A stretch of 64,000 bases of DNA, from positions 32,001 to 96,000 of the IMG/VR virus record IMGVR_UViG_3300036783_000080, one strand, 5' to 3'. Of this stretch, positions 22,258 to 51,340 are shown one piece after another. The notes under the pieces were generated by a model. The model made no database searches. It worked only from the letters and a program-made list of their open reading frames with translations, and had not been told where the DNA came from. Position 1 is the first letter of the stretch. Every line of letters begins with the position of its first letter. The position numbers were made by a program, and so were the translations under genes. Source of the stretch: a virus (lineage: Duplodnaviria > Caudoviricetes).

Positions 22258-22668
22258 TTAGTTTTCCATAACTTTTTGTAACATCAAAACATAACGGTTA
22301 AATCCTGCTTCATCTCTTTCATCTAAACAAATATCAATCATCAATCTGATATCCTCTTCTTCAAGAGCTGACAAATCATCATACTTTCTTATTTGAAGCC
22401 TTTTTATGTCAGTAAGCTCAACGCTGACTGTTCGCTCTCTATCTCGTCTAGAAGGACGGACAAACTCACCGCCATTCTCACGAACTTGAACGATTTTGAA
22501 CCTCATCTTGTTAATAAAGGTTTTAGATACTTGCGCCAAGGCTTCAACACCGTGGACGTAATACTCTGGGTGATTTACAAGTATGTAATCTCCTGAACTT
22601 AATTGTTCCCTGAAAGGAATCTTCGTGTCCAAAAGTTCTTCCATATTCTTTTCCTCCCTTGTAGTCAA
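22258..22668 (-). CDS. IDEAL-domain protein
   Basis: C-terminal LMIDICLDERDEAGFNRYV. Confidence 0.65.
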   Translation of the reverse strand: MTTREEKNMEELLDTKIPFREQLSSGDYILVNHPEYYVHGVEALAQVSKTFINKMRFKIVQVRENGGEFVRPSRRDRERTVSVELTDIKRLQIRKYDDLSALEEEDIRLMIDICLDERDEAGFNRYVLMLQKVMEN

Positions 22669-22794
22669 CTGTAACTCGCCTACAAACTTATCATACTTTA
22701 CATTTTAATAGATTACAAGAAAAAATTTGACAATTTTGGGAATATTTTCTTGATTACAAATAAAGATGAGCAGATACATGTCTACTCATCGTTG

Positions 22795-23037
22795 TTAGGA
22801 GATTATAATTTTGTTAGCTTTATAGTAACGATGTCCATTACTTTGTTTAGATGTTACATGTGCGAACGGTATTTGTTCCCTTTTACACCAAGTTTTCAAT
22901 GCATCCTCTTCATCTTTCGCCTTAATAAATCTTTGACGTTTAACAACATTCTCTTTAATTCTAAGACCAATCATAAAGGTTTCCATATATTTCCCCTCTC
23001 CCTTATCTAAATCAAAAGAAGAAATAAAAACCTCCAA
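22795..23037 (-). CDS. Hypothetical protein (likely start METF ~22987)
   Basis: GAGGGG RBS. Confidence 0.55.
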   Translation of the reverse strand: MEVFISSFDLDKGEGKYMETFMIGLRIKENVVKRQRFIKAKDEEDALKTWCKREQIPFAHVTSKQSNGHRYYKANKIIIS

Positions 23038-23104
23038 CTACAACGCCAATCATAATGATTAACGACAGACAGCCGATAATTGCACGTTCAACTTTTTCAC
23101 TCAT
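23012..23104 (-). CDS. 30-aa single-TM microprotein (MSEKVERAIIGCLSLIIMIGVVVGGFYFFF)
   Basis: GGGAGTGAG upstream; one TM; missing from ORF track. Confidence 0.5.
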   Translation of the reverse strand: MSEKVERAIIGCLSLIIMIGVVVGGFYFFF

Positions 23105-23220
23105 AAGATACTCACTCCCACTCGTTACTTTGGTATATGTACTCTTATTTTGTCCTGTATTGAAGGTTTTTATCCTCTTGCTTAATATAAGCCGCTTGTT
23201 GAATTACGCTCTCCTGTAGG

Positions 23221-23490
23221 TCAGAAACGAACGCCTGGATGACGTTTAACTGCACCGACTTCTTCAGGTGTTTCTGGGACATAAACTGCTTGGAATCCTT
23301 GTTCACGATATTGTTCAAGGGTTGTAATGCCTTGCGTTGTATATGGAATTGTTTTAACTTTTCCTTCAAGGATATAACCAGCCATCAGCTTGTCAATCTC
23401 TTGTGGTTGAATACCTTTCTTTTTCTGCTGATTCTTCATCAGCTTCCCTAAAGCAACATTAACATCTGGAGTAACCGCATAAATTTTCAT
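23221..23490 (-). CDS. Hypothetical protein (MKIYAV...)
   Basis: AGGAGAG RBS. Confidence 0.65.
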   Translation of the reverse strand: MKIYAVTPDVNVALGKLMKNQQKKKGIQPQEIDKLMAGYILEGKVKTIPYTTQGITTLEQYREQGFQAVYVPETPEEVGAVKRHPGVRF

Positions 23491-23598
23491 ATTAACTCTC
23501 CTATCGTTTATTTTTGAGTAACAAAAACCATAATACTGCACCAATTAATACTAATCCTAGTACGATTCCGACTGTTTCCACTATTATCACCTCTCATC

Positions 23599-23630
23599 TA
23601 AAGAAAAGAGGTAACTCAAAAGTTACCTCC
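23599..23630 (-). promoter_or_regulatory. Hairpin/promoter hybrid element
   Basis: GGGAGG-19-TTTCTTT; stem GAGGTAACT/AGTTACCTC. Confidence 0.55.
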
Positions 23631-23823
23631 CAATACTCATTCCTTTACGATACCAAGAAGCAATCTGCTCCTCAGTAACATCTCCCACAAAAGTCCTTGG
23701 TTGGACTATATCAATAAACTTTTTGATTGCTCCAAGGTTCTCTGTTTCACAATATGGAGTCCCATCTTTCTCAGTAACACAAAGAGCTACGATGTCATCA
23801 GTAAAATATATACTATATCTCAT
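23623..23823 (-). CDS. Hypothetical protein, paralog of 43901..44104
   Basis: Shared YS..DG..Y..T..I..F..G.VT..Q...WY pattern. Confidence 0.7.
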   Translation of the reverse strand: MRYSIYFTDDIVALCVTEKDGTPYCETENLGAIKKFIDIVQPRTFVGDVTEEQIASWYRKGMSIGR

Positions 23824-24224
23824 TAGATTTCCACCCCATTAAAATGACTTAAACGAATGTCTTTCATGTGGGCGTAGCTCTCAGCATTAGATTGATGACG
23901 TCCATAAGGAACAATTTTGTCATCCCAATGTACAAAATGTTCGTGTTTCTTTCCATAACCTTCTAAACGTTTTGCTTTTTCTTGTAAGTCGGGTTTCAGC
24001 CACTCTGCTTCTTCCCCTCCACGTAAAGCATACGCCAACTCAATCACCTTCAACGCAGCGTTTTCAGAAGTTACTTGGACAGCTTGCTCTGTGATGTTGT
24101 TTATAACTTCGAACTTTGTTGACTGAGTTTGAGTGATAGTATACCATTTCCAGTTCACAATAACTGGGTAGTCGTGTAATTTCTTCCCTTTTACGCCTTT
24201 AGTTGCAACCGCTGCTTTTGTCAT
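23823..24224 (-). CDS. Hypothetical protein
   Basis: GGAGGAG RBS. Confidence 0.7.
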   Translation of the reverse strand: MTKAAVATKGVKGKKLHDYPVIVNWKWYTITQTQSTKFEVINNITEQAVQVTSENAALKVIELAYALRGGEEAEWLKPDLQEKAKRLEGYGKKHEHFVHWDDKIVPYGRHQSNAESYAHMKDIRLSHFNGVEI

Positions 24225-24241
24225 TTTAATTCTCCTCCAAA

Positions 24242-24742
24242 TTATAAAGTTTTTACGATTTCGTTTGTATTCTTATTCACAAATTTAACAGTAATATCAT
24301 CAGATGTTACAATATGAGCTTCCTTGCCATACTCTTCGTGTGCTTTCTTTTTAACCCATCCCCAAGTTTCATACGTCACACCTTGGCCAAATGCCTGTCT
24401 TGCCTGCGGATATTGTGAACTTGGTATCCCCATTTGGTTCGCCACAGCATCCATATCCATAAACAAAGTTATCGTTTTACCTGTTTCATCAATCTCAACG
24501 TGCGTTTTCATGTAGTCCAACTGTGGTTGGTTCTTTACAGGCGTATTTACAGCCAACTGAAGGATAGCCTTGTAGTTGCGAATACGTTCTTTCAGAAGTA
24601 CTGCTTGTTCCTTTGCCTTGGAATCCTCTTTAAATCCTTGCTGTGTAGGTTTCTCTGTTGTAGTCTTCTCTGTGTTGCTACAAGCTCCCATAAGTCCCAC
24701 CGTTACTAATAAACCAATACCAACCTTTTTCCAATTTTTCAT
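24242..24742 (-). CDS. Lipoprotein
   Basis: MKNWKK, hydrophobic core, lipobox MGAC. Confidence 0.8.
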   Translation of the reverse strand: MKNWKKVGIGLLVTVGLMGACSNTEKTTTEKPTQQGFKEDSKAKEQAVLLKERIRNYKAILQLAVNTPVKNQPQLDYMKTHVEIDETGKTITLFMDMDAVANQMGIPSSQYPQARQAFGQGVTYETWGWVKKKAHEEYGKEAHIVTSDDITVKFVNKNTNEIVKTL

Positions 24743-24780
24743 TGTTATTCCTCCCCAGGATAATTAAATGAAGTTGACTT

Positions 24781-25644
24781 TCATTCAAACGCTCTGTTGT
24801 TTGCAACTTTGTATTCCGCAAGCTCTTGTGAATAATTCAAGAAAGATTCTCTGTCACCTTCGTCAATCGCTTTGTCAATAAGGAAACGCAATCTTTGTTC
24901 ACCAAATAATTTGGAAACTTCTTCCACTAGTTGGTTCACCTCCTTTCGATACTCTGGAGAAATCCTACTTGATTTGGCCATAGCATCGTGCTCTTGAATA
25001 ATGCCATTTTTGAACTCAACCTCTTTACCGTTGACTTTGACAGAACCTTCTACAATATGGGTCATTAGAGATTCAGTGATGGCATCGTCCTTCTCTCGGT
25101 ACGCAGTTAAATCATCTTCAATTTCATTCCAGAAGCTATCATTCACGTCAGGCTCACTTGAACTACTAAAAGAATGACTGTTCTGACTCATCATATTCCT
25201 CTGTTGTTCATCATATTCCGCCATTTTACGTACAACTTCAGGAGAATATTCACGTAAGTCTCGTTGATACAATCTGCGATACCTGCGAGAGTCACTAGCA
25301 TAGAATCCAAGAACAATTGTCACTTCATCTTCCTCTTTGAGCTTATCCATAAATTTGTTCATCGCAGACTTGTCCACGTGTCTGAATTTTGGTCCATCGT
25401 GTTCAATGTACTCTGCTCGACAGAATTTTCTACTTTCGTCAACATCTATAAAGATAGCAAAATCAGTATAATACGAATACACATAACGCTTAAATGTTGC
25501 GTAATTTTCTGCCACAAAAACAAATTTGACATTTTTCTTTGATATTAGTTCTCTATGTATGTCTGTGATGAACACTCGAATGCCCGTATGAATTTCTGCT
25601 TCATGTAAATAATCGTTCATTTTAAGTAATAGAGAATTTTTCAT
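24781..25644 (-). CDS. IDEAL-domain protein
   Basis: C-terminal LRFLIDKAIDEGDRESFLNYSQEL. Confidence 0.75.
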   Translation of the reverse strand: MKNSLLLKMNDYLHEAEIHTGIRVFITDIHRELISKKNVKFVFVAENYATFKRYVYSYYTDFAIFIDVDESRKFCRAEYIEHDGPKFRHVDKSAMNKFMDKLKEEDEVTIVLGFYASDSRRYRRLYQRDLREYSPEVVRKMAEYDEQQRNMMSQNSHSFSSSSEPDVNDSFWNEIEDDLTAYREKDDAITESLMTHIVEGSVKVNGKEVEFKNGIIQEHDAMAKSSRISPEYRKEVNQLVEEVSKLFGEQRLRFLIDKAIDEGDRESFLNYSQELAEYKVANNRAFE

Positions 25645-25647
25645 CTC

Positions 25648-25727
25648 AACCGCTCCTTTTCCTACTTGGTTAGTGTGTAAGAACTATCTTACAAGTTAAT
25701 CATATATTATCCTTTCCCAACGGTCAA
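25648..25727 (-). promoter_or_regulatory. SigA promoter plus palindromic leader cassette (copy 1)
   Basis: TTGACC-17-TATGAT-TAAC-TTGTAAGATAGTTCTTACACACTAACCAAGTAGGAAAAGGAGCGGTT. Confidence 0.8.
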
Positions 25728-25796
25728 GAGATATTTATGAAATTTTTGAAAATATTTTTATTCAAGAGAAAAGCGTGGATTTCTCCACGCCGCTTA

Positions 25797-26102
25797 TTAA
25801 TAAGTTAGCGCTCTACAAGGGTCACACATTAGGTTTTTATCTTTCGGTTTCGGCATACCGCATCTTGGACAATAGCAGTGTTCCGTTTCTTTAGGTTGAG
25901 AGGTACTTACAAGATGGAAATTCTTCTCTAAAGAGCTTTCAGTGTGTTTTACGTACATTTGACTATTTACAGAGATTTTATAAATGATACAATCAGCGAT
26001 AATTTCAATTTTTGTAACCGCTCCTTTGATACCTTTTTCAATACCAGTGTACCCAAGACCTTTTGATTCAACTAATGTTCCAACTAAGTATTTGTTTCTC
26101 AT
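25797..26102 (-). CDS. SH3-like plus zinc-finger protein
   Basis: CPRC..CDPC at C-terminus. Confidence 0.7.
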   Translation of the reverse strand: MRNKYLVGTLVESKGLGYTGIEKGIKGAVTKIEIIADCIIYKISVNSQMYVKHTESSLEKNFHLVSTSQPKETEHCYCPRCGMPKPKDKNLMCDPCRALTY

Positions 26103-26106
26103 AATT

Positions 26107-26186
26107 AACCGCTCCTTTCCTACTTGGTTATTGTGTAAGAACTATCTTACAAGTTAATCATAATATAAGTATGTTCCAATAGTCAA
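26107..26186 (-). promoter_or_regulatory. SigA promoter plus palindromic leader cassette (copy 2)
   Basis: TTGACTATTGG, 18-nt spacer, TATGAT, near-identical leader. Confidence 0.8.
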
Positions 26187-26226
26187 GTGTTTATTCTGAA
26201 AATTTGAAAATAAAAAGAGAGCCTTT

Positions 26227-26571
26227 TCAGGCTCTCCTTCTTTCCAACTCTTTACACACATTCATCTTCATCTTTATATGAGGGTTACTAACCAATTCTT
26301 TTTCCGTATGATTATCATCTTTGAACAACCTCCCATATTTATGTTCGTAGTATAGAAAGAACGGTAATGAAGCAACAATCCCTAAAACGAGTGTTCCGCA
26401 AGCTATAAGGAGAAAATTGATAGACAGTTCTCCCAGGCTGTTCGTATACCACCAGAATCCTTCTGTAAAGAATCCTTTTGATAAATACGTCAAGAGAGGA
26501 AATGTCACCGCTCCTGCGCCAAATAGAACACTTAAACTCAACGCTTGTAACTTTGTTTCTTTATCCATCAT
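26227..26571 (-). CDS. Membrane protein
   Basis: Two TM segments; GGGAGG RBS. Confidence 0.65.
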   Translation of the reverse strand: MMDKETKLQALSLSVLFGAGAVTFPLLTYLSKGFFTEGFWWYTNSLGELSINFLLIACGTLVLGIVASLPFFLYYEHKYGRLFKDDNHTEKELVSNPHIKMKMNVCKELERRRA

Positions 26572-26633
26572 ATTTCCTCCCTATAGCTTGATTTATAAGA
26601 GGAGAAGCCGCTTTGACCTCGCCTCAATTTAAT

Positions 26634-26837
26634 TTATCGAACGTCAACCCAACGCATCATAACTTGTAACGCTTCATCATAACTGTTTGAAGATGTTACT
26701 TCATTTTGGAACTGTTCAATCTCCTCTTTAGAGATTTTATTTCTGCGCATCGCTTTCGATACAATCCCCATAAGGTTGAAAACATTTCCATCTTCCCCAA
26801 TTAATTTTACTTCAATTCCAGTTTTGCTTTTACTCAT
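26634..26837 (-). CDS. Conserved small phage/plasmid protein
   Basis: KLIGEDGNVFNLMG..YDEALQ..WVDV motif. Confidence 0.75.
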   Translation of the reverse strand: MSKSKTGIEVKLIGEDGNVFNLMGIVSKAMRRNKISKEEIEQFQNEVTSSNSYDEALQVMMRWVDVR

Positions 26838-26856
26838 TCCAATCCGCTCCCTTTTA

Positions 26857-27174
26857 TTAGTAGTTTAAGATTCCAACATATCGGCAGTAGTCATAACCTT
26901 GAGTGTCAACCGCAACTGTTTCATATCCATTTGTTACTACCAACACGCGGTCTTGCTTCCATTTGCGATTATGTTTTCTACAGATTTCACTGTCTTTCAT
27001 AAAGTTGTTAACGAATAGTTCAAAAGAATCATGATTCAACTTTACAATTTCTCCCACAGCCAACTTTGTTGTTTCAAAATTTGACTTGCTTTCATAAGAC
27101 CTTTGTAACTCATCAAAGTTTCTAAGTTTACTAAACATTTTGACTTGAATTTTCTGACCAACTTTTAGTCTCAT
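26857..27174 (-). CDS. DUF6329-like protein
   Basis: VAVDTQGYDYCRYVG C-terminal motif. Confidence 0.6.
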   Translation of the reverse strand: MRLKVGQKIQVKMFSKLRNFDELQRSYESKSNFETTKLAVGEIVKLNHDSFELFVNNFMKDSEICRKHNRKWKQDRVLVVTNGYETVAVDTQGYDYCRYVGILNY

Positions 27175-27178
27175 AATT

Positions 27179-27259
27179 AACCGCTCCTTTTCCTACTTGG
27201 TTAGTGTGTAAGAACTATCTTACAAGGTATAGCATAGTATATTATACTACAATGGTCAA
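27179..27259 (-). promoter_or_regulatory. SigA promoter plus palindromic leader cassette (copy 3)
   Basis: TTGACC-17-TATGCT plus the same leader. Confidence 0.8.
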
Positions 27260-27334
27260 GTGTTTATTCTGAAATTGTTGAAATTATTTTTTATGTAAAA
27301 GAAAAGAGCTGAATATAACAGCTCTTTACTAGGA

Positions 27335-27649
27335 TTATTTTATGTCATCTTCCTTTAATGGATTTCCATTAGCATCTTTTATAACAATACGAAGAACTTC
27401 AGTTAATGGCAAGAGATGTACAGAACCGTCTTCTTGTCCAGCAATTATGAAGCGTTCTTTTTTCACAGCATCTCGCAGCCAGAACTTAATATCAGAAGTT
27501 TCTACATCAACAGTATGTTCCTCAATGACTTTCTTTCCTACTTCCTTTATATCAGGAACAAGAAGAACGAATGTAACATTATATTTCTTCATTTTTGGAG
27601 AAGAGATACCAACACCAACAGATTTCTCAGTAATACTTTTCTTTTCCAT
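27335..27649 (-). CDS. Hypothetical protein
   Basis: TAATG coupling; terminator downstream. Confidence 0.7.
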   Translation of the reverse strand: MEKKSITEKSVGVGISSPKMKKYNVTFVLLVPDIKEVGKKVIEEHTVDVETSDIKFWLRDAVKKERFIIAGQEDGSVHLLPLTEVLRIVIKDANGNPLKEDDIK

Positions 27650-27731
27650 TATTTACCACCCTTTCTTCTCTCATCAATTATACAACCTAACATCACGCCT
27701 ACGAACAACACAACCCAGAACAAAGTAGCCA

Positions 27732-28064
27732 TTACCTTCTATCAAGCAACTTTTGCATTTCTTTTTGTTGCTCTCTAAGTTCTTTCTTCTCAGCATGGTC
27801 TTGGTCATAAAGTACGCCGCTTGCGATAGTTGTTACGATTAATAAGACAACGCCACCAACATATTGTTCTTTAACTATAAGAAGAAATAATCCACTCAAC
27901 AACATAGCAAAGATAGAAAGAGCCATCATAGTTCTCGGAACATTTAATTGGTCTTTTTCTACACTAGTGAGAATCATTCTTGGTCTGTCGTCTGGTAATA
28001 TCTTTGCTGTTTTGTCCCATTCTTCTATTTCTTTCTTTAGATATTCTTTTTCATCTTTCGCCAT
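27732..28064 (-). CDS. Two-TM membrane protein
   Basis: AGGAGG RBS; hydrophobic hairpin. Confidence 0.7.
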   Translation of the reverse strand: MAKDEKEYLKKEIEEWDKTAKILPDDRPRMILTSVEKDQLNVPRTMMALSIFAMLLSGLFLLIVKEQYVGGVVLLIVTTIASGVLYDQDHAEKKELREQQKEMQKLLDRR

Positions 28065-28075
28065 TTCATGTCCTC

Positions 28076-28324
28076 CTAATATAGACGTAAACTGTTGGCT
28101 TCCTCTGGTTCACAATATTCTTTAATATATTCATTGTACTCATCAATAATTTGTCTGGGTAACATACGTGTAATTGTGTCAAACTCTGTGTACTGTGTTT
28201 TTATCTTTAGGTATTGTATGCAACCATCTTCACCATACGGTTGTATCTTCAACATGCGTAAGAAATATGCTTTTCTCTCAACAAGATATTGAATAAAACT
28301 GTAATTATTGTCACCTATGTCCAT
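28076..28324 (-). CDS. Hypothetical protein
   Basis: AAGGAG RBS. Confidence 0.65.
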   Translation of the reverse strand: MDIGDNNYSFIQYLVERKAYFLRMLKIQPYGEDGCIQYLKIKTQYTEFDTITRMLPRQIIDEYNEYIKEYCEPEEANSLRLY

Positions 28325-28556
28325 GTTTGGGCAGCTCCTTCGCTTTTATGACATACATTGAAGAACTTTCTTCAAAGTAACAATCAACACCATAGTTAAT
28401 TACATCCCTTACATCAATCATCTCCCTTTGAGGGATTCTGATTTCACCGCCATAATGTTGTATAATGTTGCAGAAATATCGTAATAGCTTGTGATAATTC
28501 TGTTCTTGTAACGCCAGCTTTCCTTCAAGAATCTTAATGTATTCTTTATCTTCCAT
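28311..28556 (-). CDS. Hypothetical protein
   Basis: TAATG coupling. Confidence 0.65.
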   Translation of the reverse strand: MEDKEYIKILEGKLALQEQNYHKLLRYFCNIIQHYGGEIRIPQREMIDVRDVINYGVDCYFEESSSMYVIKAKELPKHGHR

Positions 28557-28858
28557 TAGTTTCTCACTTTCCTTTTGGAGATACTAACTTTAGCGAAGCC
28601 GATTTCACCACATAATTCTGCAATGAATCTATCGCTGAGAGCTTCACACATCTGAATGAATCCGTTTAAATCTGAATGGAATCCCATAGTAATTTCTTCA
28701 CCTTCATCAGTTCCACCAAGGTCTATCGGCACACCATTGTAACGTTTCCCAGGGATTGCGATATAACCATCAATGTCTTTCGTTAATGTTAACGTTTCAT
28801 CAATCTTAACATCCAAACCCAAATCTAAAGCTTCCATAACCTTTAATGTCTTTCTCAT
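28556..28858 (-). CDS. Hypothetical protein
   Basis: ATGA coupling. Confidence 0.65.
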   Translation of the reverse strand: MRKTLKVMEALDLGLDVKIDETLTLTKDIDGYIAIPGKRYNGVPIDLGGTDEGEEITMGFHSDLNGFIQMCEALSDRFIAELCGEIGFAKVSISKRKVRN

Positions 28859-29457
28859 TTTGCTTCGTTCATCTCCTTAATTCTCTGGCCAACTTCCACA
28901 TCAAATTTGAAGCTCTCAATGTAAACATCTTTTAATTGAGCAGATAGCTCTTTAAATTGTTCTTCATCACCTGCGCTCAAAGAGGTATCAATCTCAGCTT
29001 TCAAGCGGCGTTCTTTTCCTTGAATCATCGTAACATTAAGGAATGCATCAAGCATCTCTTTCTCTTCAGGTTTTAAATAGACATCAATATCGTATGGATG
29101 CGGCTCAATAACTTCCATAAAACGAAGGTCTTGGAAACGATTAGGCAGAAAAATCTCCACATAAGTTATTTCATTAAGATTCATACGAATGTCGTGGAAT
29201 CCTTTTTCTGGGTCTTTCGTGAACACTTCTCCATTTTTGAAGAACTTGAACGCAGCTGGAGAGCCTTTGGCATCCTTTACCGCAATCTTGAATCCTCTTG
29301 GAACGTTCCGTATATCTGTTGTAAATACAATATTCTCAAGAATACGGTCTTTTGAAGCAAGAAAATCAAGAATCCAAACATTTTCTCTTTTACGATGTTC
29401 AAAGTTGTTCATAACGTATCTGATGAACGCTCTTTTTTGTGTAACCGTTACAGTCAT
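28855..29457 (-). CDS. reoY: ReoY/YpiB (UPF0302)-family ClpCP proteolysis factor with IDEAL domain
   Basis: KRAFIRY..KRENVWILDFL..PRG..FKFFK..DPEKGFHDIRMN..EIDTSLSAGDEEQFKELS follows B. subtilis YpiB along its length. Confidence 0.85.
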   Translation of the reverse strand: MTVTVTQKRAFIRYVMNNFEHRKRENVWILDFLASKDRILENIVFTTDIRNVPRGFKIAVKDAKGSPAAFKFFKNGEVFTKDPEKGFHDIRMNLNEITYVEIFLPNRFQDLRFMEVIEPHPYDIDVYLKPEEKEMLDAFLNVTMIQGKERRLKAEIDTSLSAGDEEQFKELSAQLKDVYIESFKFDVEVGQRIKEMNEAK

Positions 29458-29534
29458 CTTTATCTCCTCCTTTACCTAATATAAGGGAGGAAGCACAAAA
29501 CGTTTCCCTGTAATCATGGAAAAAAGAATCCTTT

Positions 29535-30056
29535 TCAGGATTCTTTCGGGGAATAACACCAATGTACTTGTCCACATTGTCCACAAGGAGAATAGAAGTA
29601 ACTTGTATCAGTTGTCTCGAATTTAGTTAGTCTTACAGCAGTCACTCTATCTTCAGAAGGTTCTCCAGTTCTTGCAACTTGAGCCCACATATTCTTATGA
29701 GTTTCAGGACACATTATAGCAGTCACATCAAATCCAAACGAAGGCATGTCTCCTGTATACTCCCAGTTCATAACGCCAATTCCTTCACCATATCGTTTTA
29801 CAGCTTCTTCCAACAACTTGAATGGCGGATTAATCCTCTTGTGTTTTGGTCTGTCAGGAATCTCAAAGAAATATGAAGGAGTCATTCTCTCAAAGCTAGT
29901 TGATTTGACATAGTTAATCTTTCTATTTTTCAAGAATCTTTCAAACCGATTCACTTCAGATTCCATTACCATTTCATAGTTGTCAACTTCTCCTTGAATA
30001 AGCATACGCACGATTGTTGAGAAATGGTCTTCTAAGCCAAATTCAGGACTTATCAT
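29535..30056 (-). CDS. Hypothetical protein with C-terminal CxxC
   Basis: CGQCGQVHW; GGAGG RBS. Confidence 0.7.
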   Translation of the reverse strand: MISPEFGLEDHFSTIVRMLIQGEVDNYEMVMESEVNRFERFLKNRKINYVKSTSFERMTPSYFFEIPDRPKHKRINPPFKLLEEAVKRYGEGIGVMNWEYTGDMPSFGFDVTAIMCPETHKNMWAQVARTGEPSEDRVTAVRLTKFETTDTSYFYSPCGQCGQVHWCYSPKES

Positions 30057-30229
30057 AGTTTTCCCTCCGACTTATTAAAAGATTCACCCTGCAAGCCGCC
30101 TAATGGCTTAGATGTTAGGTTTTTCTTGAAGTCCCCTCTAAGAGCTTTCTGCGCACAAGCACCGCAAGTCGTTTTATATTCCACTTCTAACGGTCTTCCA
30201 CATCCTGTACAACGTTGTTTAGCCATCAT
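30053..30229 (-). CDS. 58-aa zinc-finger microprotein missing from ORF track
   Basis: AAGGAG RBS; CTGC..CGAC; ATGA coupling to next gene. Confidence 0.6.
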   Translation of the reverse strand: MMAKQRCTGCGRPLEVEYKTTCGACAQKALRGDFKKNLTSKPLGGLQGESFNKSEGKL

Positions 30230-30368
30230 TGTTCTCCTTTCAGCCTTAAGGCTTCCGCTTTACGGATTTTTATTGGTATCTTCTTATAGCATATAATACA
30301 AAGCAGCTTTTCCTTAAATTGGACAAAGTATGTTGTTCCTTCACGTCCACAGCGTTCACACTTCTTCA

Positions 30369-30659
30369 TCAGTGGATAACTCCAATACTATGCGCAACCC
30401 ATTGCGTTTTAGGTGACCAGAAACACATAAACTCCTTCGTTGATTCATTAATCTGCATCATAATAGTATAGCGTTGATTCAAACCTAAAGGAAGCTCGTC
30501 ATTGGCCATTTTCTCGTACATCTTCAAAGCTGCCATACATTCTTCATGTTGTTCTATCGGAGTATCTGAACCCTTGTGAATAGCCATAACATTACGGAAC
30601 GCATTCATTCCAGTGAACTGTGTATACATGTTTAAGAAATCCTCTTCTTTATTCCTCAT
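30369..30659 (-). CDS. Hypothetical protein
   Basis: GAAGGAG RBS. Confidence 0.65.
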   Translation of the reverse strand: MRNKEEDFLNMYTQFTGMNAFRNVMAIHKGSDTPIEQHEECMAALKMYEKMANDELPLGLNQRYTIMMQINESTKEFMCFWSPKTQWVAHSIGVIH

Positions 30660-30987
30660 TTTGTAAAGCTCCTTCCTTTAATCGAATATCTTTCCATCGT
30701 TCCCACATTTCGTTTGTAGGATTCTTCTTGTTAACCCAGCCTTCACTATCTCTGTAGTCAATCTTCCCAGCATAGATTTCATCGCCTTTCTTACCAGAAA
30801 CCTTTTCACCAGGACAATCCGTTGTTAAAGAGCCTTCAAATAATCCACATACTTTACATAAGGACAAACCGCCATCAATGATGTTCCGTTCTTCCCATTC
30901 CGTTGTACAATCTTTACCAGTCATATATTGGTGATTCATTCCAGTCTTCCCTCCATCTCTTTCATCTCTTCCAAATATTGATTCCAA
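30649..30987 (-). CDS. Conserved phage Cys-motif protein (likely start MNHQ ~30939)
   Basis: CKVCGLFEGSLTTDCPG. Confidence 0.65.
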   Translation of the reverse strand: MESIFGRDERDGGKTGMNHQYMTGKDCTTEWEERNIIDGGLSLCKVCGLFEGSLTTDCPGEKVSGKKGDEIYAGKIDYRDSEGWVNKKNPTNEMWERWKDIRLKEGALQNEE

Positions 30988-31223
30988 GGAATCGCAACGA
31001 GCTTGAATATTGTTTTATCATTCTCAGTAAGACGTACTTTAATCACATAATACTGTTTAATAATTTCAGGTAATATCGTGTTAATGTGGACATCAAAGTC
31101 GCATATAACCTGAGAGAAAGTCAATCCGTTTGTAACTGAATTGCATAACCGCTTTGTGAACTCCTTCTGTTGGTCTTTCAAGAATCCCTGAAGGAATCTC
31201 TCAATGTCTTGAATAGAACGCAT
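30936..31223 (-). CDS. Hypothetical protein
   Basis: AGGAGGTG RBS before ATG 31223. Confidence 0.65.
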   Translation of the reverse strand: MRSIQDIERFLQGFLKDQQKEFTKRLCNSVTNGLTFSQVICDFDVHINTILPEIIKQYYVIKVRLTENDKTIFKLVAIPWNQYLEEMKEMEGRLE

Positions 31224-31238
31224 ATTAACACCTCCTAC

Positions 31239-31271
31239 ATAATAAAAGGAGCGACTCATAAAAGCCGCTCC
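31239..31271 (-). promoter_or_regulatory. Hairpin/promoter hybrid element
   Basis: GGAGCGGC-TTTTATGA-GTCGCTCC-TTTTATTATGT. Confidence 0.65.
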
Positions 31272-31277
31272 CATAAC

Positions 31278-31529
31278 TCAGTGTCTTCTCTTGTAGTTTC
31301 TGAAAGCCAGTTTGTCCTTAATATTAAGGAATACGTCAATGGATAGTAATGTCATAGATAGATACAACAGGGAATGATAGCCTGTTATGACGCTTATGAC
31401 AAAACATAGGAATCCAACTAGAAGACAGTATGTAGAGCCAGATGTGTCCATATACATGTCTCCCCAAGTTAACACAATAAGTATCTTCGCCAACACTAGG
31501 ACGACAACGAGCGTGTGTAATAATAACAT
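31278..31529 (-). CDS. Membrane protein
   Basis: Three hydrophobic segments. Confidence 0.6.
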   Translation of the reverse strand: MLLLHTLVVVLVLAKILIVLTWGDMYMDTSGSTYCLLVGFLCFVISVITGYHSLLYLSMTLLSIDVFLNIKDKLAFRNYKRRH

Positions 31530-31544
31530 ATTATTTATCCTTTC

Positions 31545-31931
31545 TTAGTATTTACTAAAATCAATATTTGCTGTAAAGGACTTTCTAAAGTTGTTGACAC
31601 GTGCAAAAGCTTTGTCAAACGGATTCTTTGTAGCTTCCTCTGCTTCTTCATATTCTTTTCTAAGCTCTTTCTTAATTAATCCTTCACCATAGTCTTTTAA
31701 ATCAAACTTTTCCATTATAGCACCATCCACTTCAATGTCAGCATGAAATTTCGCAGTGAATTCCTCTTTAGTACCTTTAAAAATGTCTATCTCGGCCAGA
31801 ATATTGTGCGGGATTCCAGTGAATGGTGACATACATGAGTATTCAACTCTTACATAACAAAGTCCATCCTCTTCTGAATATAGAGTTCTCGCACTAAATG
31901 GGATAGCGTATACTGTTGGTATGTTTGACAT
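31545..31931 (-). CDS. Hypothetical protein
   Basis: AGGAGG RBS. Confidence 0.7.
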   Translation of the reverse strand: MSNIPTVYAIPFSARTLYSEEDGLCYVRVEYSCMSPFTGIPHNILAEIDIFKGTKEEFTAKFHADIEVDGAIMEKFDLKDYGEGLIKKELRKEYEEAEEATKNPFDKAFARVNNFRKSFTANIDFSKY

Positions 31932-32048
31932 GTTACATTCCTCCTAATTTGTTATAATATAATAATTCTACGTTAAAGCTCAATTCACCTCCCTTCGCAT
32001 TAATGGAAGTAGCTGCTTATGGTTCTCAAGCAAACGCACCATTTCTTC

Positions 32049-32492
32049 TTATTGTTCATTGTTCTCCTCCTGTTCTGTAACGTATCCAACGTGTTGATAT
32101 ACAGCCACCTTTAAGTTATCGCCGTTCTTCATCAAACTTCTTGCCACATTAGCGTTCCCAGGGTTGACATAAGCTCTATGCTGCTGCTTCTTACTTCGTT
32201 GACTTAGAGCGGCTACAATTGGCTGCTCCTCTTCGTCATGTAATAGGAAGATTGTCTTGCGGTCATATCCATCGCCGCTCTCCAAACTCATTGACATTTC
32301 AATTAGGTGATTTAGTTCTTTCTTCTTATCATTAGCAAGTTGTATTGTAGAATCCGTTTTCTCACGGAAGAACTCAATTCTGTAAATGTCATCCTTCAGT
32401 ACTTGGATTCTTGCCTCAAGAGCTACCTTCAGAGCAGATACCTTCGCACCGTTCATACTTAATAGGGTGTTACTTATTACTTCACGTTTCAT
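32049..32492 (-). CDS. Hypothetical protein
   Basis: GAGGAGG RBS. Confidence 0.7.
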   Translation of the reverse strand: MKREVISNTLLSMNGAKVSALKVALEARIQVLKDDIYRIEFFREKTDSTIQLANDKKKELNHLIEMSMSLESGDGYDRKTIFLLHDEEEQPIVAALSQRSKKQQHRAYVNPGNANVARSLMKNGDNLKVAVYQHVGYVTEQEENNEQ

Positions 32493-32602
32493 ATTGTTTC
32501 CTCCTCAAGCGGTTATGCTTAATATAACGTACCAAGTGAAAACCGTCCTCCCCTCCATTCTCCATACCCATAAATTTATTTTCATGATATTGGAATTATC
32601 TC

Positions 32603-32684
32603 TTGACTATTGGAGTATACTTAATATATGATAGCTCTTGTAAGATATAAAAACCACTAGTCAAGTGGAAGAGGAGCGGATGAA
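32603..32684 (+). promoter_or_regulatory. SigA early promoter plus leader starting the plus-strand block
   Basis: TTGACTATTGG, 18-nt spacer, TATGAT, CTTGTAAGATA..CAAGTGG..GAGGAGCGG. Confidence 0.7.
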
Positions 32685-33272
32685 ATGAGTAACACTAATA
32701 GAAAATTTGACCAATTATCTTCAACGGAATTAAACGTAATTCACGCAAGTCTACACACAAGAATTGAGAAGTTAACTAAACGCAGTATGCAATACACTGA
32801 TATGCTTGATGATTATAGAGAAGCTGGCGAAATCCTTTATACAGACGTAACACAAAAGTTAATTAAACAGGTCTCATTTGACCTTGAAGTTGCTTATCTT
32901 CTATTAGGAGAAGTCAACCAAGAGATTGGAATAAAAGCAGAAGAGTTTATCAACGAAGTTCTTCCACCTATGCCAAAGGATTGGAACGATGACAGGTTCA
33001 AGTTAGCGGTTGACCCAAATTACAAATTCACTATTACAAACCTTTCAACAGGTGAAGTACGGGAATATGAAAACTCATATAAAGAGGAAGTTATCAAGAC
33101 AGGCAAGGAATTGCTTGACAGTAACTTGAAGACCTTGAAAGAGCTTTCTAACGAAGGTGTGGATGTACTTCCGTTCAAGGAAAGTATCAAGATAGAAGGA
33201 ACTTCTTCAACCGTTCTTCTCTTATCAAGTTATTGGTTACAAATAGTAGACGATTTAGAAGGAGAACAGTGA
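32685..33272 (+). CDS. Hypothetical early protein
   Basis: RBS and promoter upstream. Confidence 0.75.
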   Translation: MSNTNRKFDQLSSTELNVIHASLHTRIEKLTKRSMQYTDMLDDYREAGEILYTDVTQKLIKQVSFDLEVAYLLLGEVNQEIGIKAEEFINEVLPPMPKDWNDDRFKLAVDPNYKFTITNLSTGEVREYENSYKEEVIKTGKELLDSNLKTLKELSNEGVDVLPFKESIKIEGTSSTVLLLSSYWLQIVDDLEGEQ

Positions 33273-46020: not shown

Positions 46021-46022
46021 GT

Positions 46023-46217: not shown

Positions 46218-46233
46218 CTTTGTTCACCACCTT

Positions 46234-46404: not shown

Positions 46405-46410
46405 ATTGTA

Positions 46411-46572: not shown

Positions 46573-46585
46573 AGTTGTTCTCCTT

Positions 46586-47004: not shown

Positions 47005-47011
47005 TGGCTTC

Positions 47012-47449: not shown

Positions 47450-47748
47450 CCTTCAATCTCCTTTCGTTCTACTAAGACATCATAGCGTTCTTTATACATA
47501 TCATTCCAATACTCTTGCAGATGAGTGATTACACGTACAACTCTATATAATCCTGCTACATTGTTAGGGTTGAATTCATCTTTATCCTTATTTACAAACG
47601 GATAATACATAATGCTACTTCCTTCTTGCGGTACAGTTGACATTTCAAAGTAGTCATTCTCATCTTTGTTTTCACGTAGCGGCTTGCCTGTTGCGATGTC
47701 GATTAACTTTAACATTACAATTCCCATATCAGTCCATATCCTTTCCAA
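47446..47748 (-). CDS. Hypothetical protein
   Basis: Operon continuity. Confidence 0.6.
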   Translation of the reverse strand: MERIWTDMGIVMLKLIDIATGKPLRENKDENDYFEMSTVPQEGSSIMYYPFVNKDKDEFNPNNVAGLYRVVRVITHLQEYWNDMYKERYDVLVERKEIEG

Positions 47749-48193
47749 AGTTCTCTAAACATTTCCAGTTCGCACCTAACACTACACCCGTCGTATATTC
47801 ATTAAACTGACTTGTTAGTTCATTTATTGTTAATCCTGGGTTGACACGTGTTATTGCTTCTTTATACATTGCATACGCTCTACTTGCAGATATCTGTGTT
47901 GGTGCTCCTTGTTTCTGTACATCTGCATAGTTCATATTATATCTTTCAGAATATGTGCAAGCGGCAGTCTGTAATGTTCCTGCTGCTATAAGTGACCATA
48001 TTTCTTGTTTGTTGAATAGATAATAGTTTGTTTGTTTTAAATCAGGTTGTATAACGATAGATTCAGCCGCTTGTTTTGGTTCATCAGCCTTCAGTTTCTC
48101 CCAAGCTTTTGTAATGTCAACAATGACTTGCATATCATATCCTGTTTCGTTTTCAACTTGTTTCAGTAGGTCTAACGTTTTAATATGTTCCAT
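47729..48193 (-). CDS. Hypothetical protein, paralog of 48427..48915
   Basis: YYLFNKQEIWSLIAAGTLQTA. Confidence 0.7.
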   Translation of the reverse strand: MEHIKTLDLLKQVENETGYDMQVIVDITKAWEKLKADEPKQAAESIVIQPDLKQTNYYLFNKQEIWSLIAAGTLQTAACTYSERYNMNYADVQKQGAPTQISASRAYAMYKEAITRVNPGLTINELTSQFNEYTTGVVLGANWKCLENFGKDMD

Positions 48194-48195
48194 GT

Positions 48196-48417
48196 TTACA
48201 GCTCCTTCGCTATTGTTATGTTACTAATATCTTTCAAGGCAAACAATCTGCTGTCTTTCTTCTCTTTATCGAAAGCTTTTAACAGCCATTGTTCTTCTGG
48301 GTGCCATTCCGTACTTCCCCAACAGACGTAACCGACAAGGACAGTCCTTCTTGATTCCTCTCCACGCCAGTTCTTATAATCGAATTGTACGACAGTTAAT
48401 GGCTTTAATGGTATCAT
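48196..48417 (-). CDS. Stand-alone WYL-domain protein
   Basis: FDYKNWRGEESRRTV..QWLLKAFDKEKKDSRLFALKDI. Confidence 0.8.
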   Translation of the reverse strand: MIPLKPLTVVQFDYKNWRGEESRRTVLVGYVCWGSTEWHPEEQWLLKAFDKEKKDSRLFALKDISNITIAKEL

Positions 48418-48426
48418 ATTACCCTC

Positions 48427-48915
48427 CTACACTAATGACGACTCAATTAATACTACTGTGTTGTAACGTTCAAAGAAATCTTTTGTGAACTCCTCTGTGA
48501 AACCTTTATTCAATAGCTTTTCTGTCATTCTTGATTTGATATATTTGTCAAGAGCGTGCCGTGTTGAGACTGGTGATGCTTGTCCTTCTTTTCTGACTTC
48601 CTCAGCATCAGAGTTTGCAACATTCTCTGCATAGATTTCATACGCTTTATCAACTGTTCCTGCTGCGATTAATGCCCAATACTCGTGACGATTAAACTCG
48701 AAATACATCATACCAGCCCTTACACCAGCTTGATATGGATTAGGTTCTAGCTTTGGAACCTTGATTGGCGTTAAATCTGGGGCTGGCATTGAACACGCTT
48801 TCGCTCCCTTTAATCGCTCCCATTCTTTAACAACGCTTAACGTTTCACCAATATCTATTCCAGCCTTTTCTGAAACCTTTTCAACATCATCAATCATATC
48901 TACAACGTTCATCAT
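48427..48915 (-). CDS. Hypothetical protein, paralog of 47729..48193
   Basis: YFEFNRHEYWALIAAGTVDKA; AGGAGG RBS. Confidence 0.7.
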   Translation of the reverse strand: MMNVVDMIDDVEKVSEKAGIDIGETLSVVKEWERLKGAKACSMPAPDLTPIKVPKLEPNPYQAGVRAGMMYFEFNRHEYWALIAAGTVDKAYEIYAENVANSDAEEVRKEGQASPVSTRHALDKYIKSRMTEKLLNKGFTEEFTKDFFERYNTVVLIESSLV

Positions 48916-48964
48916 GTTTCCTCCTGTACGTCTTATTTGTAAGGAGTACGTGTACAACGCACTC

Positions 48965-49171
48965 CTATAAACACATAATCGTTATTGTAATAAGCTTGTT
49001 CTTTTTCTTCCCTTTTCGGTATACTTCGTACATGTTGAGGTGGTCATTCCATTGCTGTACCTTTCTGTATCCGCTTGTACGTAGTTCATGAACATACTTC
49101 TTATACTTCTTATATGCACTACCATCCCATGCGGCGTATTGAGCATCACCTTTAACGATATTAAGATGCAT
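48965..49171 (-). CDS. Small basic protein
   Basis: TAATG coupling. Confidence 0.6.
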   Translation of the reverse strand: MHLNIVKGDAQYAAWDGSAYKKYKKYVHELRTSGYRKVQQWNDHLNMYEVYRKGKKKNKLITITIMCL

Positions 49172-49506
49172 TATTCATCTTGTCCTTCCACTTTGATGAA
49201 TAGATTCTTGAATGAATACATTGTACCATCCTTACAGTAGATGACCATTTCTTTCTTGGATTCATTAACACGTACAAAGTCCAATTCTTTACCATTAAGA
49301 ATGTTCTTTTCTTCCACTGACACTTCCTCCTCTACATCTACAAACTCGACAGTTTCATATTGTTTCGCTGTTTCAGTTGCTTCCTCTGTGCTGAACTTGT
49401 GTGCTTTACTTTTTAGAACTGTCCAAAGGTAGACATCATCTTGTACGTGACGTAAATAATAGATAATACCATCAACATTCTTCACACCATAGTATTGTTT
49501 GCTCAC
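49171..49506 (-). CDS. Hypothetical protein
   Basis: GGAGG RBS; YYG..WT..K.KA motif shared with 49851..50165. Confidence 0.65.
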   Translation of the reverse strand: MSKQYYGVKNVDGIIYYLRHVQDDVYLWTVLKSKAHKFSTEEATETAKQYETVEFVDVEEEVSVEEKNILNGKELDFVRVNESKKEMVIYCKDGTMYSFKNLFIKVEGQDE

Positions 49507-49518
49507 TTCTCTTCCTCC

Positions 49519-49785
49519 TTAGTGAAAGTTCTTGTATCTATATTCAGTAACATCATTTGCTAGACTGAGCAATGTAATAACTGTAAGAGCTGACACGAGC
49601 ATATTTAGTAACAGGTATCCAAACGCTGACCAAAAACTATGATTCCAGAATGGGAATATGAGTGATATTATGATAGTTACTATTACATAGAAGAAAAGGA
49701 AGCAACCTAATGCGAAACATCCTAACTCATCATCCATTATTGTCTTCCTCCTCACGATGGTCTTCAGTGTCAATGTATGTTTCAT
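49519..49785 (-). CDS. Two-TM membrane protein (likely start MDDEL ~49737)
   Basis: GAGGAGG RBS; hydrophobic. Confidence 0.6.
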   Translation of the reverse strand: MKHTLTLKTIVRRKTIMDDELGCFALGCFLFFYVIVTIIISLIFPFWNHSFWSAFGYLLLNMLVSALTVITLLSLANDVTEYRYKNFH

Positions 49786-49850
49786 ATGGGTGTACAGTCA
49801 TCTCGACACCGTTGTCAAAGCAAATACATGTTCCACGTACTTCCGTAACT

Positions 49851-50165
49851 TTAGCTCCAATTATCTTTTTGATATCTTTCGAAAACTGATTCATTGTCAT
49901 TCACCTCCGCTGGTTCAAACGTTACATAAGGGACTTGACGTTCAAAGTGTCCTTGTTGGTCTTCCATAATGTATAAGGCTCTCTGTTTGTCCTTCGTCCA
50001 TATATAACCGCTTGGCATTGTTTCATCATAAGCTATGTAGAATTTCTCTTTGTTGAAAATGCTCGTCCCATAATATAACTGAGGTTTGATAAACTCTCCT
50101 CTGTTATTCATTGTCCTGTTCCTCATTCTCCTGTATCTTCTTCTGTGCGTACGCTCGTATTGCAA
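49851..50165 (-). CDS. Hypothetical protein (likely start ~50111)
   Basis: Operon continuity. Confidence 0.6.
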   Translation of the reverse strand: MQYERTHRRRYRRMRNRTMNNRGEFIKPQLYYGTSIFNKEKFYIAYDETMPSGYIWTKDKQRALYIMEDQQGHFERQVPYVTFEPAEVNDNESVFERYQKDNWS

Positions 50166-50706
50166 GGTGTTTCTCTGAAGCTCTTAACAATCTAATATGT
50201 TCTGCAAACGATTCTTCTTGAGCTGATGTTTCCTCTTCACGTTTCTCTATCTCTTTGGCAATCTCTTCTTCCGTTGCTAATCCCTTTATTGATGCGACTC
50301 TTGCTGATATCTGGACTTTCTCGTTAATCTCTTTTATAAGTTCAAAGCTGTAATTGAGTTTGTCTATGACCATAACACGTCTTCCTGTTCTCGTTGTCTC
50401 TATTACAACAATGTCTCCAACTGTATATTCCTTTCCATTAACAGTGACGCAGTTCTTTTTCTTGTGTAGTTCTTCTTCTGATTCATACCCAATAATGAGA
50501 CACTTTGCAAAATCTAATGGTGACAACTGGTTTAATGCCTCCGCATCTTGATTGAATGTAGCCTTCATTCTGATTCCGTTTCCAGAGAAGTCTTTGCACG
50601 TACCAATTAAATCAAATTGCTTGTTCCACTCATCGTTTGGAATCCTATCTAACGCCGCTGCTATTTCTTTTGTAACCCTTACTTTCTTCAATGTGACTTC
50701 GCTCAT
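50104..50706 (-). CDS. DUF1642-like N-terminus plus SH3-like domain protein
   Basis: KVRVTKEIAAALD..AKCLIIGYE; YTVGDIVVI. Confidence 0.65.
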   Translation of the reverse strand: MSEVTLKKVRVTKEIAAALDRIPNDEWNKQFDLIGTCKDFSGNGIRMKATFNQDAEALNQLSPLDFAKCLIIGYESEEELHKKKNCVTVNGKEYTVGDIVVIETTRTGRRVMVIDKLNYSFELIKEINEKVQISARVASIKGLATEEEIAKEIEKREEETSAQEESFAEHIRLLRASEKHLAIRAYAQKKIQENEEQDNE

Positions 50707-51104
50707 TGGTTCTCCTCCTCAGCTTCTATTCCAATTACTTCCCAGTTGCTTGAGAACATATCTGGGAATGATGGTGTCCAAGGAACACATTCATGTCGAT
50801 TCCTTAAGTATAGATAAGGTGAATTCATCTTACTGTTTTCATCAGGTACTTGTGCGAATACCATATGGTCAGTCATCCAGAATTTAAGACGCATTGCCAA
50901 CATTCCTGGTTGACGTTGAATCAAGTCCAACGCTTCCCCAAACTTTAGGTTTGTACGTCTAGTAGTCTTTTCGTGAAGACATTCCACATATGCTCTTGCC
51001 GCCGCTACCATTTCCGCTGTACTCGCATTACCTGAATTTTTGAAATGTTGTTCTACTCCCACTAAACCTCGCACCACACTAATCATATCATATCCATCTT
51101 TCAT
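50703..51104 (-). CDS. Tad2/DUF2829-like protein (candidate nucleotide-signal sponge) with N-terminal extension
   Basis: [37 protein letters not shown] resembles Tad2 SFGEAL..W..WVPSQTDVLAEDW. Confidence 0.75.
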
Positions 51105-51340
51105 TTCTGTTCCTCCTCTTGGTTCTCCTTTTGTTGTTCCTCTTCAAGAATCTCTGTACATAATCCAACGCATTCGTCACAGATGTAAACATCTGGTCCA
51201 GCTATTAACTTTTTAACTTGGTGTTGTGTCTTTCCACAGAAGTTACAAACGAGTGAATCAAACCTTCCCTGTATCTTTAACAGCTCATCATACTTTTGAG
51301 CTTTGTCAACAACTTCGTACAGTTCATTGTTAAGTCCCAT
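51101..51340 (-). CDS. Stand-alone ClpX C4-type zinc-binding domain protein
   Basis: [39 protein letters not shown]; no AAA+ domain. Confidence 0.9.

Follow-up and report, generated by a model that had tools for sequence, protein, structure and literature searches.

The window analysed here, the 64,000 nucleotides at bases 32001-96000 of the virus record IMGVR_UViG_3300036783_000080 (Duplodnaviria; Caudoviricetes; 150,650 bp, rated complete), was found to encode a homolog of ReoY (YpiB), a host cofactor of the protease ClpCP, together with two further proteins that carry, or very probably carry, the IDEAL helix pair. The same three genes are kept in Bacillus phage Nachito, the closest GenBank relative of this Spounavirinae phage. 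Our best explanation, which we put forward tentatively and with slightly less than even confidence, is that this ReoY-derived trio acts on host ClpCP and that a free ClpX-type zinc-binding domain (ZBD) encoded in the same window is separate from it. An original prediction, made from the sequence of the window, had joined the four genes into one set that retargets both ClpCP and ClpXP. All four of its open reading frames (ORFs) were present on the minus strand (22258..22668, 24781..25644, 28855..29457 and 51101..51340). That observation was partly confirmed, with corrections to the start of the smallest gene, to its IDEAL match, which is sub-threshold, and to the nature of the 287-aa protein, which is read as ReoY-like; the interpretation was partly supported. 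The four features are listed below.

28855..29457, minus strand: phage ReoY/YpiB homolog, 200 aa (Pfam UPF0302 and IDEAL, 3DO9, NCBIfam, phrog_15120)
24781..25644, minus strand: protein read as a divergent ReoY-like paralog, 287 aa (IDEAL match, N-domain model, hhalign)
22258..22644, minus strand: 128-aa protein with a probable IDEAL-like C-terminal helix pair at residues ~93-125 (several weak matches)
51101..51340, minus strand: free ClpX-type C4 ZBD, 79 aa (zf-C4_ClpX, 1OVX/2DS5, phrog_6797)

The three IDEAL proteins of the phage

The 200-aa protein consists of a UPF0302 domain (residues 7-111), a linker helix, an IDEAL motif (residues 148-175) and an additional tail of 23 aa. Both Pfam matches exceeded their gathering scores, with 77.3 bits for UPF0302 (E 1.1e-21, cut-off 27) and 30.4 bits for IDEAL (cut-off 22), and their succession is the layout of the ReoY/YpiB family. 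PDB entry 3DO9 aligned to residues 3-177 with an E-value of 7e-30, and the NCBIfam model NF002965 ('ReoY family proteolytic degradation factor') matched with an E-value of 1.7e-42 and 145.1 bits. The identity to host ReoYs was ~31-38%. When a host-conserved position was defined as one that is the same in at least 90% of 80 host ReoYs, the phage protein kept 38 of the 64 such positions. A strong ribosome-binding site (RBS), AGGAGG, was located 8 nt ahead of the ATG. Judged from its sequence, the 200-aa protein is a ReoY homolog that is not callable as a functional equivalog, and the full-length ReoY/YpiB homolog announced by the original prediction was confirmed.

The 287-aa protein has a UPF0302-like N-domain (residues 1-131), an acidic and Ser-rich insert of low model confidence (residues ~132-219) and a ReoY-like C-terminal third with the IDEAL motif (residues 220-287). 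Pfam IDEAL matched residues 241-275 with 32.3 bits, above the cut-off. Alignment with a 38-sequence ReoY profile by hhalign paired residues 220-283 with ReoY 115-183 (probability 95.7%, E 9e-9), which reaches far past the Pfam IDEAL motif, and positions 116-178 of the NCBIfam ReoY model matched as well (E 2.3e-5). In the AlphaFold2 (AF2) model, residues 1-131 formed an alpha/beta domain with a predicted local distance difference test (pLDDT) score of ~70-84, residues 132-244 were of low confidence and the end was a helix pair. An exhaustive structural comparison with 48,161 PDB representatives placed 3DO9 at the top for the N-domain (3do9_A, Z 8.0, root-mean-square deviation 2.9 Å over 108 residues), with model residues 1-136 aligned to residues 9-118 of the chain. 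Realignment of the N-domain gave Z 8.7 with 3do9_C and Z 7.7 with 9a7e_B (YpiB), with 108-112 residues aligned, and the top three Foldseek matches of the model were 9a7e_B, 3do9_B and 3do9_A. All other listed structure matches concerned the generic C-terminal helix pair only. These comparisons make a UPF0302 fold for the modelled N-domain probable, not proven, and we read the protein as a further ReoY-like paralog, strongly diverged and with ~90 aa inserted. The original prediction had described it as an unrelated N-domain, perhaps a variable substrate-binding domain, on an IDEAL docking tail. The IDEAL part of that description held, and the unrelated domain gave way to a protein that is probably ReoY-like, though divergent, over the whole layout.

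Only five members of the 287-aa family are known, all within this phage group. Across them the last 39 aa were 97.9% identical, compared with 67% in the N-domain, so that the C-terminal tail appears from the alignment to be the most constrained part of the protein. Such a near-invariant tail fits binding of the tail to a conserved host target, and the C-terminal third of this family marks the part of ReoY that would be likeliest to contact a conserved host partner. A Spo0E-like reading of an 'SQEL' stretch in the tail was dropped, as there was no Pfam Spo0E match at E 1 or better. A shape search of ESM-Atlas with the 287-aa model returned no ReoY cluster (TM score at most 0.31) and was uninformative, a third of the model being disordered.

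For the third gene, the gene callers and an RBS (GGGAGGA) placed the start at ATG 22644, giving 128 aa; the predicted frame was open, and its start at TTG 22668 was not retained. The Pfam IDEAL match of the 128-aa protein (14.7 bits, E 0.025) was under the gathering score of 22, as was that of its Nachito ortholog (16.8 bits), so that of the two additional IDEAL assignments the profile upheld the one at 24781 above its cut-off and matched the one at 22258 only below it. A C-terminal I-D-x-x-L-D-x-x-D-x-x-x-F pattern is present (IDICLDERDEAGF). The 38-sequence ReoY profile aligned with an E-value of 4.6e-4 at a probability of only 33%. With the IDEAL tail of gp638 of phage G the C-terminal stretch shared 48% identity over 31 aa (E 0.002), and with an IDEAL protein of Lysinibacillus 38% over 34 residues. 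In ESM-Atlas the three nearest clusters were all IDEAL-domain proteins of 106-125 aa that shared 178-192 of 256 features (top cluster 0.88, 192 of 256). The AF2 model was unusable (pLDDT 40.8), and its helices at residues 96-108 and 112-127 are unreliable. Because four weak, separate comparisons agree, the 128-aa protein very probably carries IDEAL.

Exactly three IDEAL matches and one ZBD match were found in the whole 150.6-kb genome. Nachito (Herelleviridae, Spounavirinae), which has a nucleotide identity of 84-86% to the phage across ~55% of the stretches tested, keeps the three IDEAL genes in the same order, with identities of 81% (ReoY), 63% (287 aa) and 91% (128 aa). They are also in synteny in the third member of the group, a 149-kb phage contig within a B. 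paranthracis assembly. Among other large phages, phage G encodes two UPF0302 and IDEAL proteins (gp577 and gp598) plus the IDEAL proteins gp636 and gp638, LysYB1 a ReoY plus the 150-aa IDEAL protein M3_0129, and YungSlug a ReoY-like protein plus a 231-aa IDEAL protein; no IDEAL gene was found in SPO1. The co-occurrence expected by the original prediction was thus seen for the IDEAL trio, in Nachito and the B. paranthracis contig, and for ReoY with an extra IDEAL protein in phage G, LysYB1 and YungSlug; it was not seen for the ZBD. A literature search found no description of a phage ReoY/UPF0302 protein or of a co-conserved ReoY/IDEAL phage set.

Phage G had the richest Clp-related set among the phages compared, with two ReoY proteins, two other IDEAL proteins and a full ClpX. 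The phage G stretches concerned are 426017-426571, 440848-441399 and 188455-188565, and the full-length ClpX is a 449-aa frame. Between gp638 or M3_0129 and a 158-aa IDEAL protein from the chromosome of Lysinibacillus the identity was 54-61%, and with gp636 the two phage proteins represent a family of ~150 aa, N-domain plus IDEAL, that occurs in two unrelated large phages as well as on a host chromosome. M3_0129 is labelled as a transcriptional regulator in the LysYB1 annotation. Each of the three Bacillus and Lysinibacillus genomes examined encoded, in addition to ReoY, a small protein of 75-95 aa with IDEAL only. The 75-aa protein of B. subtilis scored 35.5 bits with Pfam, and its gene adjoins that of an M48-type membrane peptidase. 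IDEAL is a module that occurs in several contexts, in hosts and in phages.

Other searches added little. A search of viral contigs with the single phage ReoY protein returned no related loci, and of five IMG/VR contigs with ReoY, all either fragments or a provirus, each had a single IDEAL match and was uninformative on co-occurrence. The word-indexed protein searches returned near-identical relatives only (5, 2 and 2 proteins). PADLOC gave no match for six proteins, and PHROGs no family for the 287-aa protein or for the 136-aa ORF version of the small protein. Several GenBank records (OR848187, OR846630, OR847717 and others), filed under UNVERIFIED_ORG as contigs of 'Listeria phage LM 4-14-1/4-11-1' and 'Enterococcus phage Efs 1-1-1', contain host-type ReoY and ClpX. 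Host DNA carried along in the phage preparations is the probable source, and these records are not to be counted as phage ReoY.

Almost all genes of the window are on the minus strand, and the IDEAL genes lie in a block of early-type genes at 17-32 kb, a series of small genes without family assignment. A consensus scan of the minus strand at 21000-33000 found 13 terminator-like hairpins where 5.1 were expected, several of them with promoter-like sites within the next 40-70 nt, which suggests many short early transcription units. Two such sites and a small gene adjoin the IDEAL genes.

28556..28858, minus strand: 100-aa gene whose start overlaps the ReoY stop (overlap 28855-28858); no Pfam match
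25699..25791, minus strand: terminator-like hairpin 25791-25772, then a promoter-like site 25727-25699 (consensus scan only), directly upstream of the 287-aa gene
22690..22790, minus strand: terminator-like hairpin 22790-22765, then a promoter-like site 22718-22690 (consensus scan), upstream of the 128-aa gene

The 100-aa gene was 90% identical at the same position in Nachito, compared with 81% for ReoY itself. It had no family match and no counterpart adjoining ReoY in phage G, LysYB1 or YungSlug.

Proposed relation to host ClpCP

In Listeria, ClpCP degrades MurA only with the help of ReoY and ReoM, and in B. subtilis the same holds for MurAA, GlmS and IlvB (PMC7286690). Two-hybrid assays showed that ReoY binds ClpC, ClpP and ReoM (PMC7286690). 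Further, a crosslink between ClpC and YpiB was obtained in living B. subtilis cells, and the AlphaFold-Multimer model of the pair, with an interface predicted TM score (ipTM) of 0.72, satisfied the sole heteromeric crosslink (PMC10090944 Dataset EV5). Through ReoY and ReoM, wall sensing by PASTA kinases is linked to ClpCP-dependent destruction of MurA, which catalyses the first committed step of peptidoglycan synthesis. No ReoM, ClpP or Clp_N (Clp N-domain) was found in the whole phage genome, and for that reason the phage proteins would be expected to act on the host machine.

In the mechanism that we propose, the phage would carry, within a small block of early-type genes, a family derived from host ReoY (YpiB): a fast-evolving, recognisable copy (200 aa), a divergent paralog (287 aa) and a protein with the IDEAL helix pair only (128 aa). 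These proteins would occupy the ReoY site on host ClpC, and perhaps on ClpP or ReoM. Occupation would change the substrate choice of ClpCP, with MurA/MurAA, GlmS and IlvB as the first candidates, and the synthesis of cell-wall precursors would thereby be uncoupled from the host PrkA/PrkC-ReoM checkpoint during infection. Beyond the observed homology, fold, co-conservation and recurrence, we infer that the proteins bind ClpC, either as mimics or as competitors, and a ClpC-directed IDEAL trio is plausible.

A complex prediction was made for phage ReoY, with a 38-row alignment, and residues 1-795 of B. subtilis ClpC (CLPC_BACSU). It scored 0.52, compared with 0.01 for the best of three controls, and lent weak support to the binding of a host Clp protein put forward in the original prediction. 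The runs agreed in at least 59% of contacts, and the pLDDT of the partners was at least 77. The mark used for such predictions was passed by 58 of 80 solved complexes and by 2 of 110 mismatched pairs. Scores at the mark but not above 0.60 were obtained for only seven of the 80 solved complexes and for both of the passing mismatches. As a like complex, 9A7E, has already been modelled, the pass may reflect likeness only.

Several points weigh against the proposed mechanism. A pass at the level of the ReoY-ClpC score is likelier to be wrong than right, and the tie of IDEAL, or of the three phage proteins, to ClpC derives neither from an experiment nor from a contact map. With its 145.1 bits phage ReoY remains under the NCBIfam equivalog cut-off of 182, it is non-conservatively changed at host-invariant positions (H44V, T79F, N120H and D161S), and the branch of the phage and Nachito copies in a ReoY tree was ~4.1 long compared with a host median of 0.07. 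Such very long branches kept the tree from placing the phage copies. Because of the cut-off, the radical substitutions and the long branch, phage ReoY may have lost or altered partners of ReoY. As for the 287-aa protein, its N-domain is seen by no sequence profile: Pfam UPF0302 gave no match to residues 1-135 even at E 1, and hhalign, with shallow alignments, aligned only the C-terminal 64 columns. The mean pLDDT of its model was 58.5, and Z-scores of 7.7-8.7 are borderline, close to the highest values that unrelated models attain. Finally, the terminator- and promoter-like sites in the sequence suggest that the three IDEAL genes sit in three separate transcription units.

The divergence of the phage copies also bears on the sign of the effect. 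Fast evolution with changes at many host-invariant positions is expected if one interface is kept and another lost, several of the paralogs have mainly the C-terminal third in common, and the phage has no detected ReoM. The phage ReoY-like proteins could then be competitive inhibitors (anti-adaptors) on ClpC, or could soak up unphosphorylated ReoM. MurA, GlmS and other ClpC substrates would be stabilised and envelope synthesis kept going, or ClpC-dependent stress, competence or sporulation decisions would be blocked. The canonical copy, however, retains the full two-domain layout and 38 of the 64 conserved positions, and the results fit activation as well as inhibition. We regard inhibition as an unlikely alternative to the ReoY-like redirection of ClpCP, albeit one to be kept in mind.

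IDEAL itself is without an assigned function. It was found on several unrelated N-domains and, in hosts, also alone (the 75-aa B. subtilis and 158-aa Lysinibacillus proteins), and helix pairs match many unrelated structures. It might accordingly be a generic helix-pair module for dimerisation or for another partner, for instance in PASTA-kinase signalling or sporulation control, and the phage proteins would be unconnected to Clp proteases. Against this stands ReoY, the only member of known function, which acts via ClpCP and contacts ClpC in cells (PMC7286690, PMC10090944), and two of the three phage proteins resemble ReoY past the IDEAL motif. A role apart from Clp proteases is to our judgement improbable, about as much so as inhibition.

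A bolder extension of the ClpCP mechanism, which we likewise doubt, is that the IDEAL helix pair is a portable docking tag for ClpC(P). Large Bacillaceae phages would have radiated a toolbox that plugs cargo or blocking domains into host ClpCP, its members being the ReoY copies, the 287-aa and 128-aa proteins and the gp636/gp638/M3_0129 family, with its identity of 54-61% to the host protein. If the docking-tag reading is true, the small uncharacterised IDEAL proteins found in Bacilli would turn out to be adaptors or anti-adaptors of ClpC that have gone unrecognised.

Phage ReoY copies that keep some surfaces and drop others would be natural separation-of-function variants. If the ReoY-derived trio does act on ClpCP, direct consequences for wall synthesis and for the timing of lysis would follow. 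The idea is directly testable, as Nachito is in culture, with Bacillus sp. ET1 as its host, and has all three genes.

The free ClpX-type zinc finger and its cassette

The 79-aa protein has a conserved N-terminal helix (K-A-x-K-Y-D-x-L), the ZBD (residues 31-67) and an acidic tail. The zf-C4_ClpX family (PF06689) matched with 71.2 bits against a cut-off of 27, Cys 32, 35, 54 and 57 align with those of E. coli ClpX, and the E. coli ClpX ZBD structures 1OVX and 2DS5 matched with an E-value of 2e-17. The core was 53-59% identical to the ClpX ZBD of Bacillus and Lysinibacillus, and E. coli ClpX was about as close. No AAA+ module is present in the ORF, which is too short for one, and the NCBIfam ClpX models matched at positions 5-57 only. 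The ClpX ZBD without ATPase that had been predicted here was upheld.

An exhaustive HMMER search returned 14,816 proteins with a ClpX-type zinc domain. Among them were full-length look-alikes of 74-95 aa with the invariant N-terminal K-A-x-K-Y-D-x-L helix before the zinc ribbon. Two look-alikes were located on phage-like contigs with unrelated neighbours, and their flanking genes were not conserved. The best-scoring relatives of the free ZBD carried two to six tandem ClpX-type zinc ribbons without an ATPase, for example two-copy proteins of 90 and 107 aa.

The ZBD gene lies between two genes with which it is translationally coupled.

51340..51753, minus strand: small phosphatase gene of the haloacid dehalogenase (HAD)-like type, 137 aa, immediately upstream of the ZBD gene, with which it shares base 51340
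50703..51104, minus strand: Tad2-like (Thoeris anti-defence 2-like) gene, 133 aa (PF11195, E 2.4e-9, 38 bits, cut-off 25), whose start overlaps the ZBD stop

The HAD-like protein has a DxDxT-type start ('YDFDNTV') and matched the NCBIfam BT0820-family HAD phosphatase model under its cut-off (E 1.8e-4); no Pfam match was obtained at 0.01. The HAD-like, ZBD and Tad2-like genes form a cassette (window 50703-52290) between two flanking genes that are conserved in Nachito. Nachito has one different gene in this slot, for a 165-aa 'super infection domain containing protein', and no Tad2-like gene there. Genes of counter-defence or exclusion seem to have a hot spot here.

The ZBD gene is 22 kb from the IDEAL genes. 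It was not found in Nachito, LysYB1, YungSlug or SPO1, and phage G has a full ClpX instead. These observations bear on the joint system of the original prediction, in which ReoY, the two other IDEAL proteins and the ZBD would have co-evolved to retarget ClpCP and ClpXP. All four genes are in one genome and each is homologous to a Clp cofactor or domain; however, Nachito keeps the three IDEAL genes without the ZBD, the ZBD lies far from them in a slot that holds a different gene in Nachito, and its relatives occur alone in unrelated phage contexts. Such a system, largely refuted by the missing co-occurrence, is very improbable. The free ZBD stands apart from the IDEAL set, as a mobile accessory gene whose family is specific to phages.

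By analogy with ClpX, the free ZBD would most likely bind what the ClpX N-domain binds, namely adaptor tails, some substrates or the host ZBD itself, and would blunt a subset of ClpXP degradation. The behaviour of the isolated E. coli ClpX ZBD in vitro is the sole basis for such a decoy, which counts as a further point against this part of our explanation. The adjoining Tad2-like gene suggests a role in counter-defence. The K-A-x-K-Y-D-x-L motif is invariant across seven family members with variable flanks and points to a second conserved interface. The protein might be a recruiter or substrate tag that heterodimerises with one ClpX N-domain and brings to ClpXP a phage or host protein bound by its N-terminal helix, or its zinc ribbon might serve as partner of another protein. 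No partner was identified, though, and the neighbouring genes are not conserved; we consider these readings improbable. Adaptor-dependent degradation by ClpXP might be probed, or inhibited, in a simple way with the free ClpX zinc finger, which defines a separate phage family. The ClpX-linked regulator CxaR (PMC12755775) was considered and proved to be unrelated, a TPR/Imm30-like protein.

Comparison with known systems

The reference set for the IDEAL trio comprised ReoY (Lmo1921) of Listeria monocytogenes, YpiB of Bacillus subtilis, 3DO9 (B. anthracis BA_1542) and 9A7E (an integrative ClpC-YpiB model). The 200-aa protein has the same layout of UPF0302 and IDEAL, aligned over 175 residues, and the 287-aa protein shares the C-terminal third in sequence and, to judge from its model, probably the fold of the N-domain. 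The 200-aa copy differs in that it is phage-encoded and fast-evolving, has an additional C-terminal tail and is under the equivalog cut-off, and the 287-aa form differs by its insert of ~90 aa and the lack of a UPF0302 sequence signal. The phage has three paralog-like genes rather than one, and it has no gene for the partner ReoM.

Gp53 of SPO1 is a phage protein described as modulating B. subtilis ClpCP in the manner of an adaptor (Mulvenna et al. 2019, as cited in PMC7286690). If our explanation holds, the logic would be the same: in a Spounavirinae phage, an early protein engages host ClpC and shifts the substrates that ClpC selects. The sequences are not similar, and a tblastn search of the whole phage genome with SPO1 gp53 gave no homolog (best E 0.96); neither an IDEAL nor a ZBD gene was found in SPO1. 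A captured host cofactor would here take the place of a new protein, and the trio would be a second route of SPO1-like phages to ClpCP, independent of Gp53.

With the ClpX ZBD (PF06689; 1OVX, and 2DS5-2DS8 with the SspB tail) the free finger shares a C4 ribbon core ~70% identical to the E. coli domain, including the four Cys. In contrast to ClpX, it has no AAA+ module and adds an invariant N-terminal helix motif of its own and an acidic tail; it belongs to a phage family, phrog_6797, of single, mobile genes. T4 PinA and T7 Gp4.5 are phage inhibitors of Lon. The free ZBD may resemble them in being small, phage-encoded and able to blunt a protease of the host, plausibly so as to halt a protease-triggered defence. 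It would differ in mechanism, by mimicking the very domain with which the protease binds substrates and adaptors.

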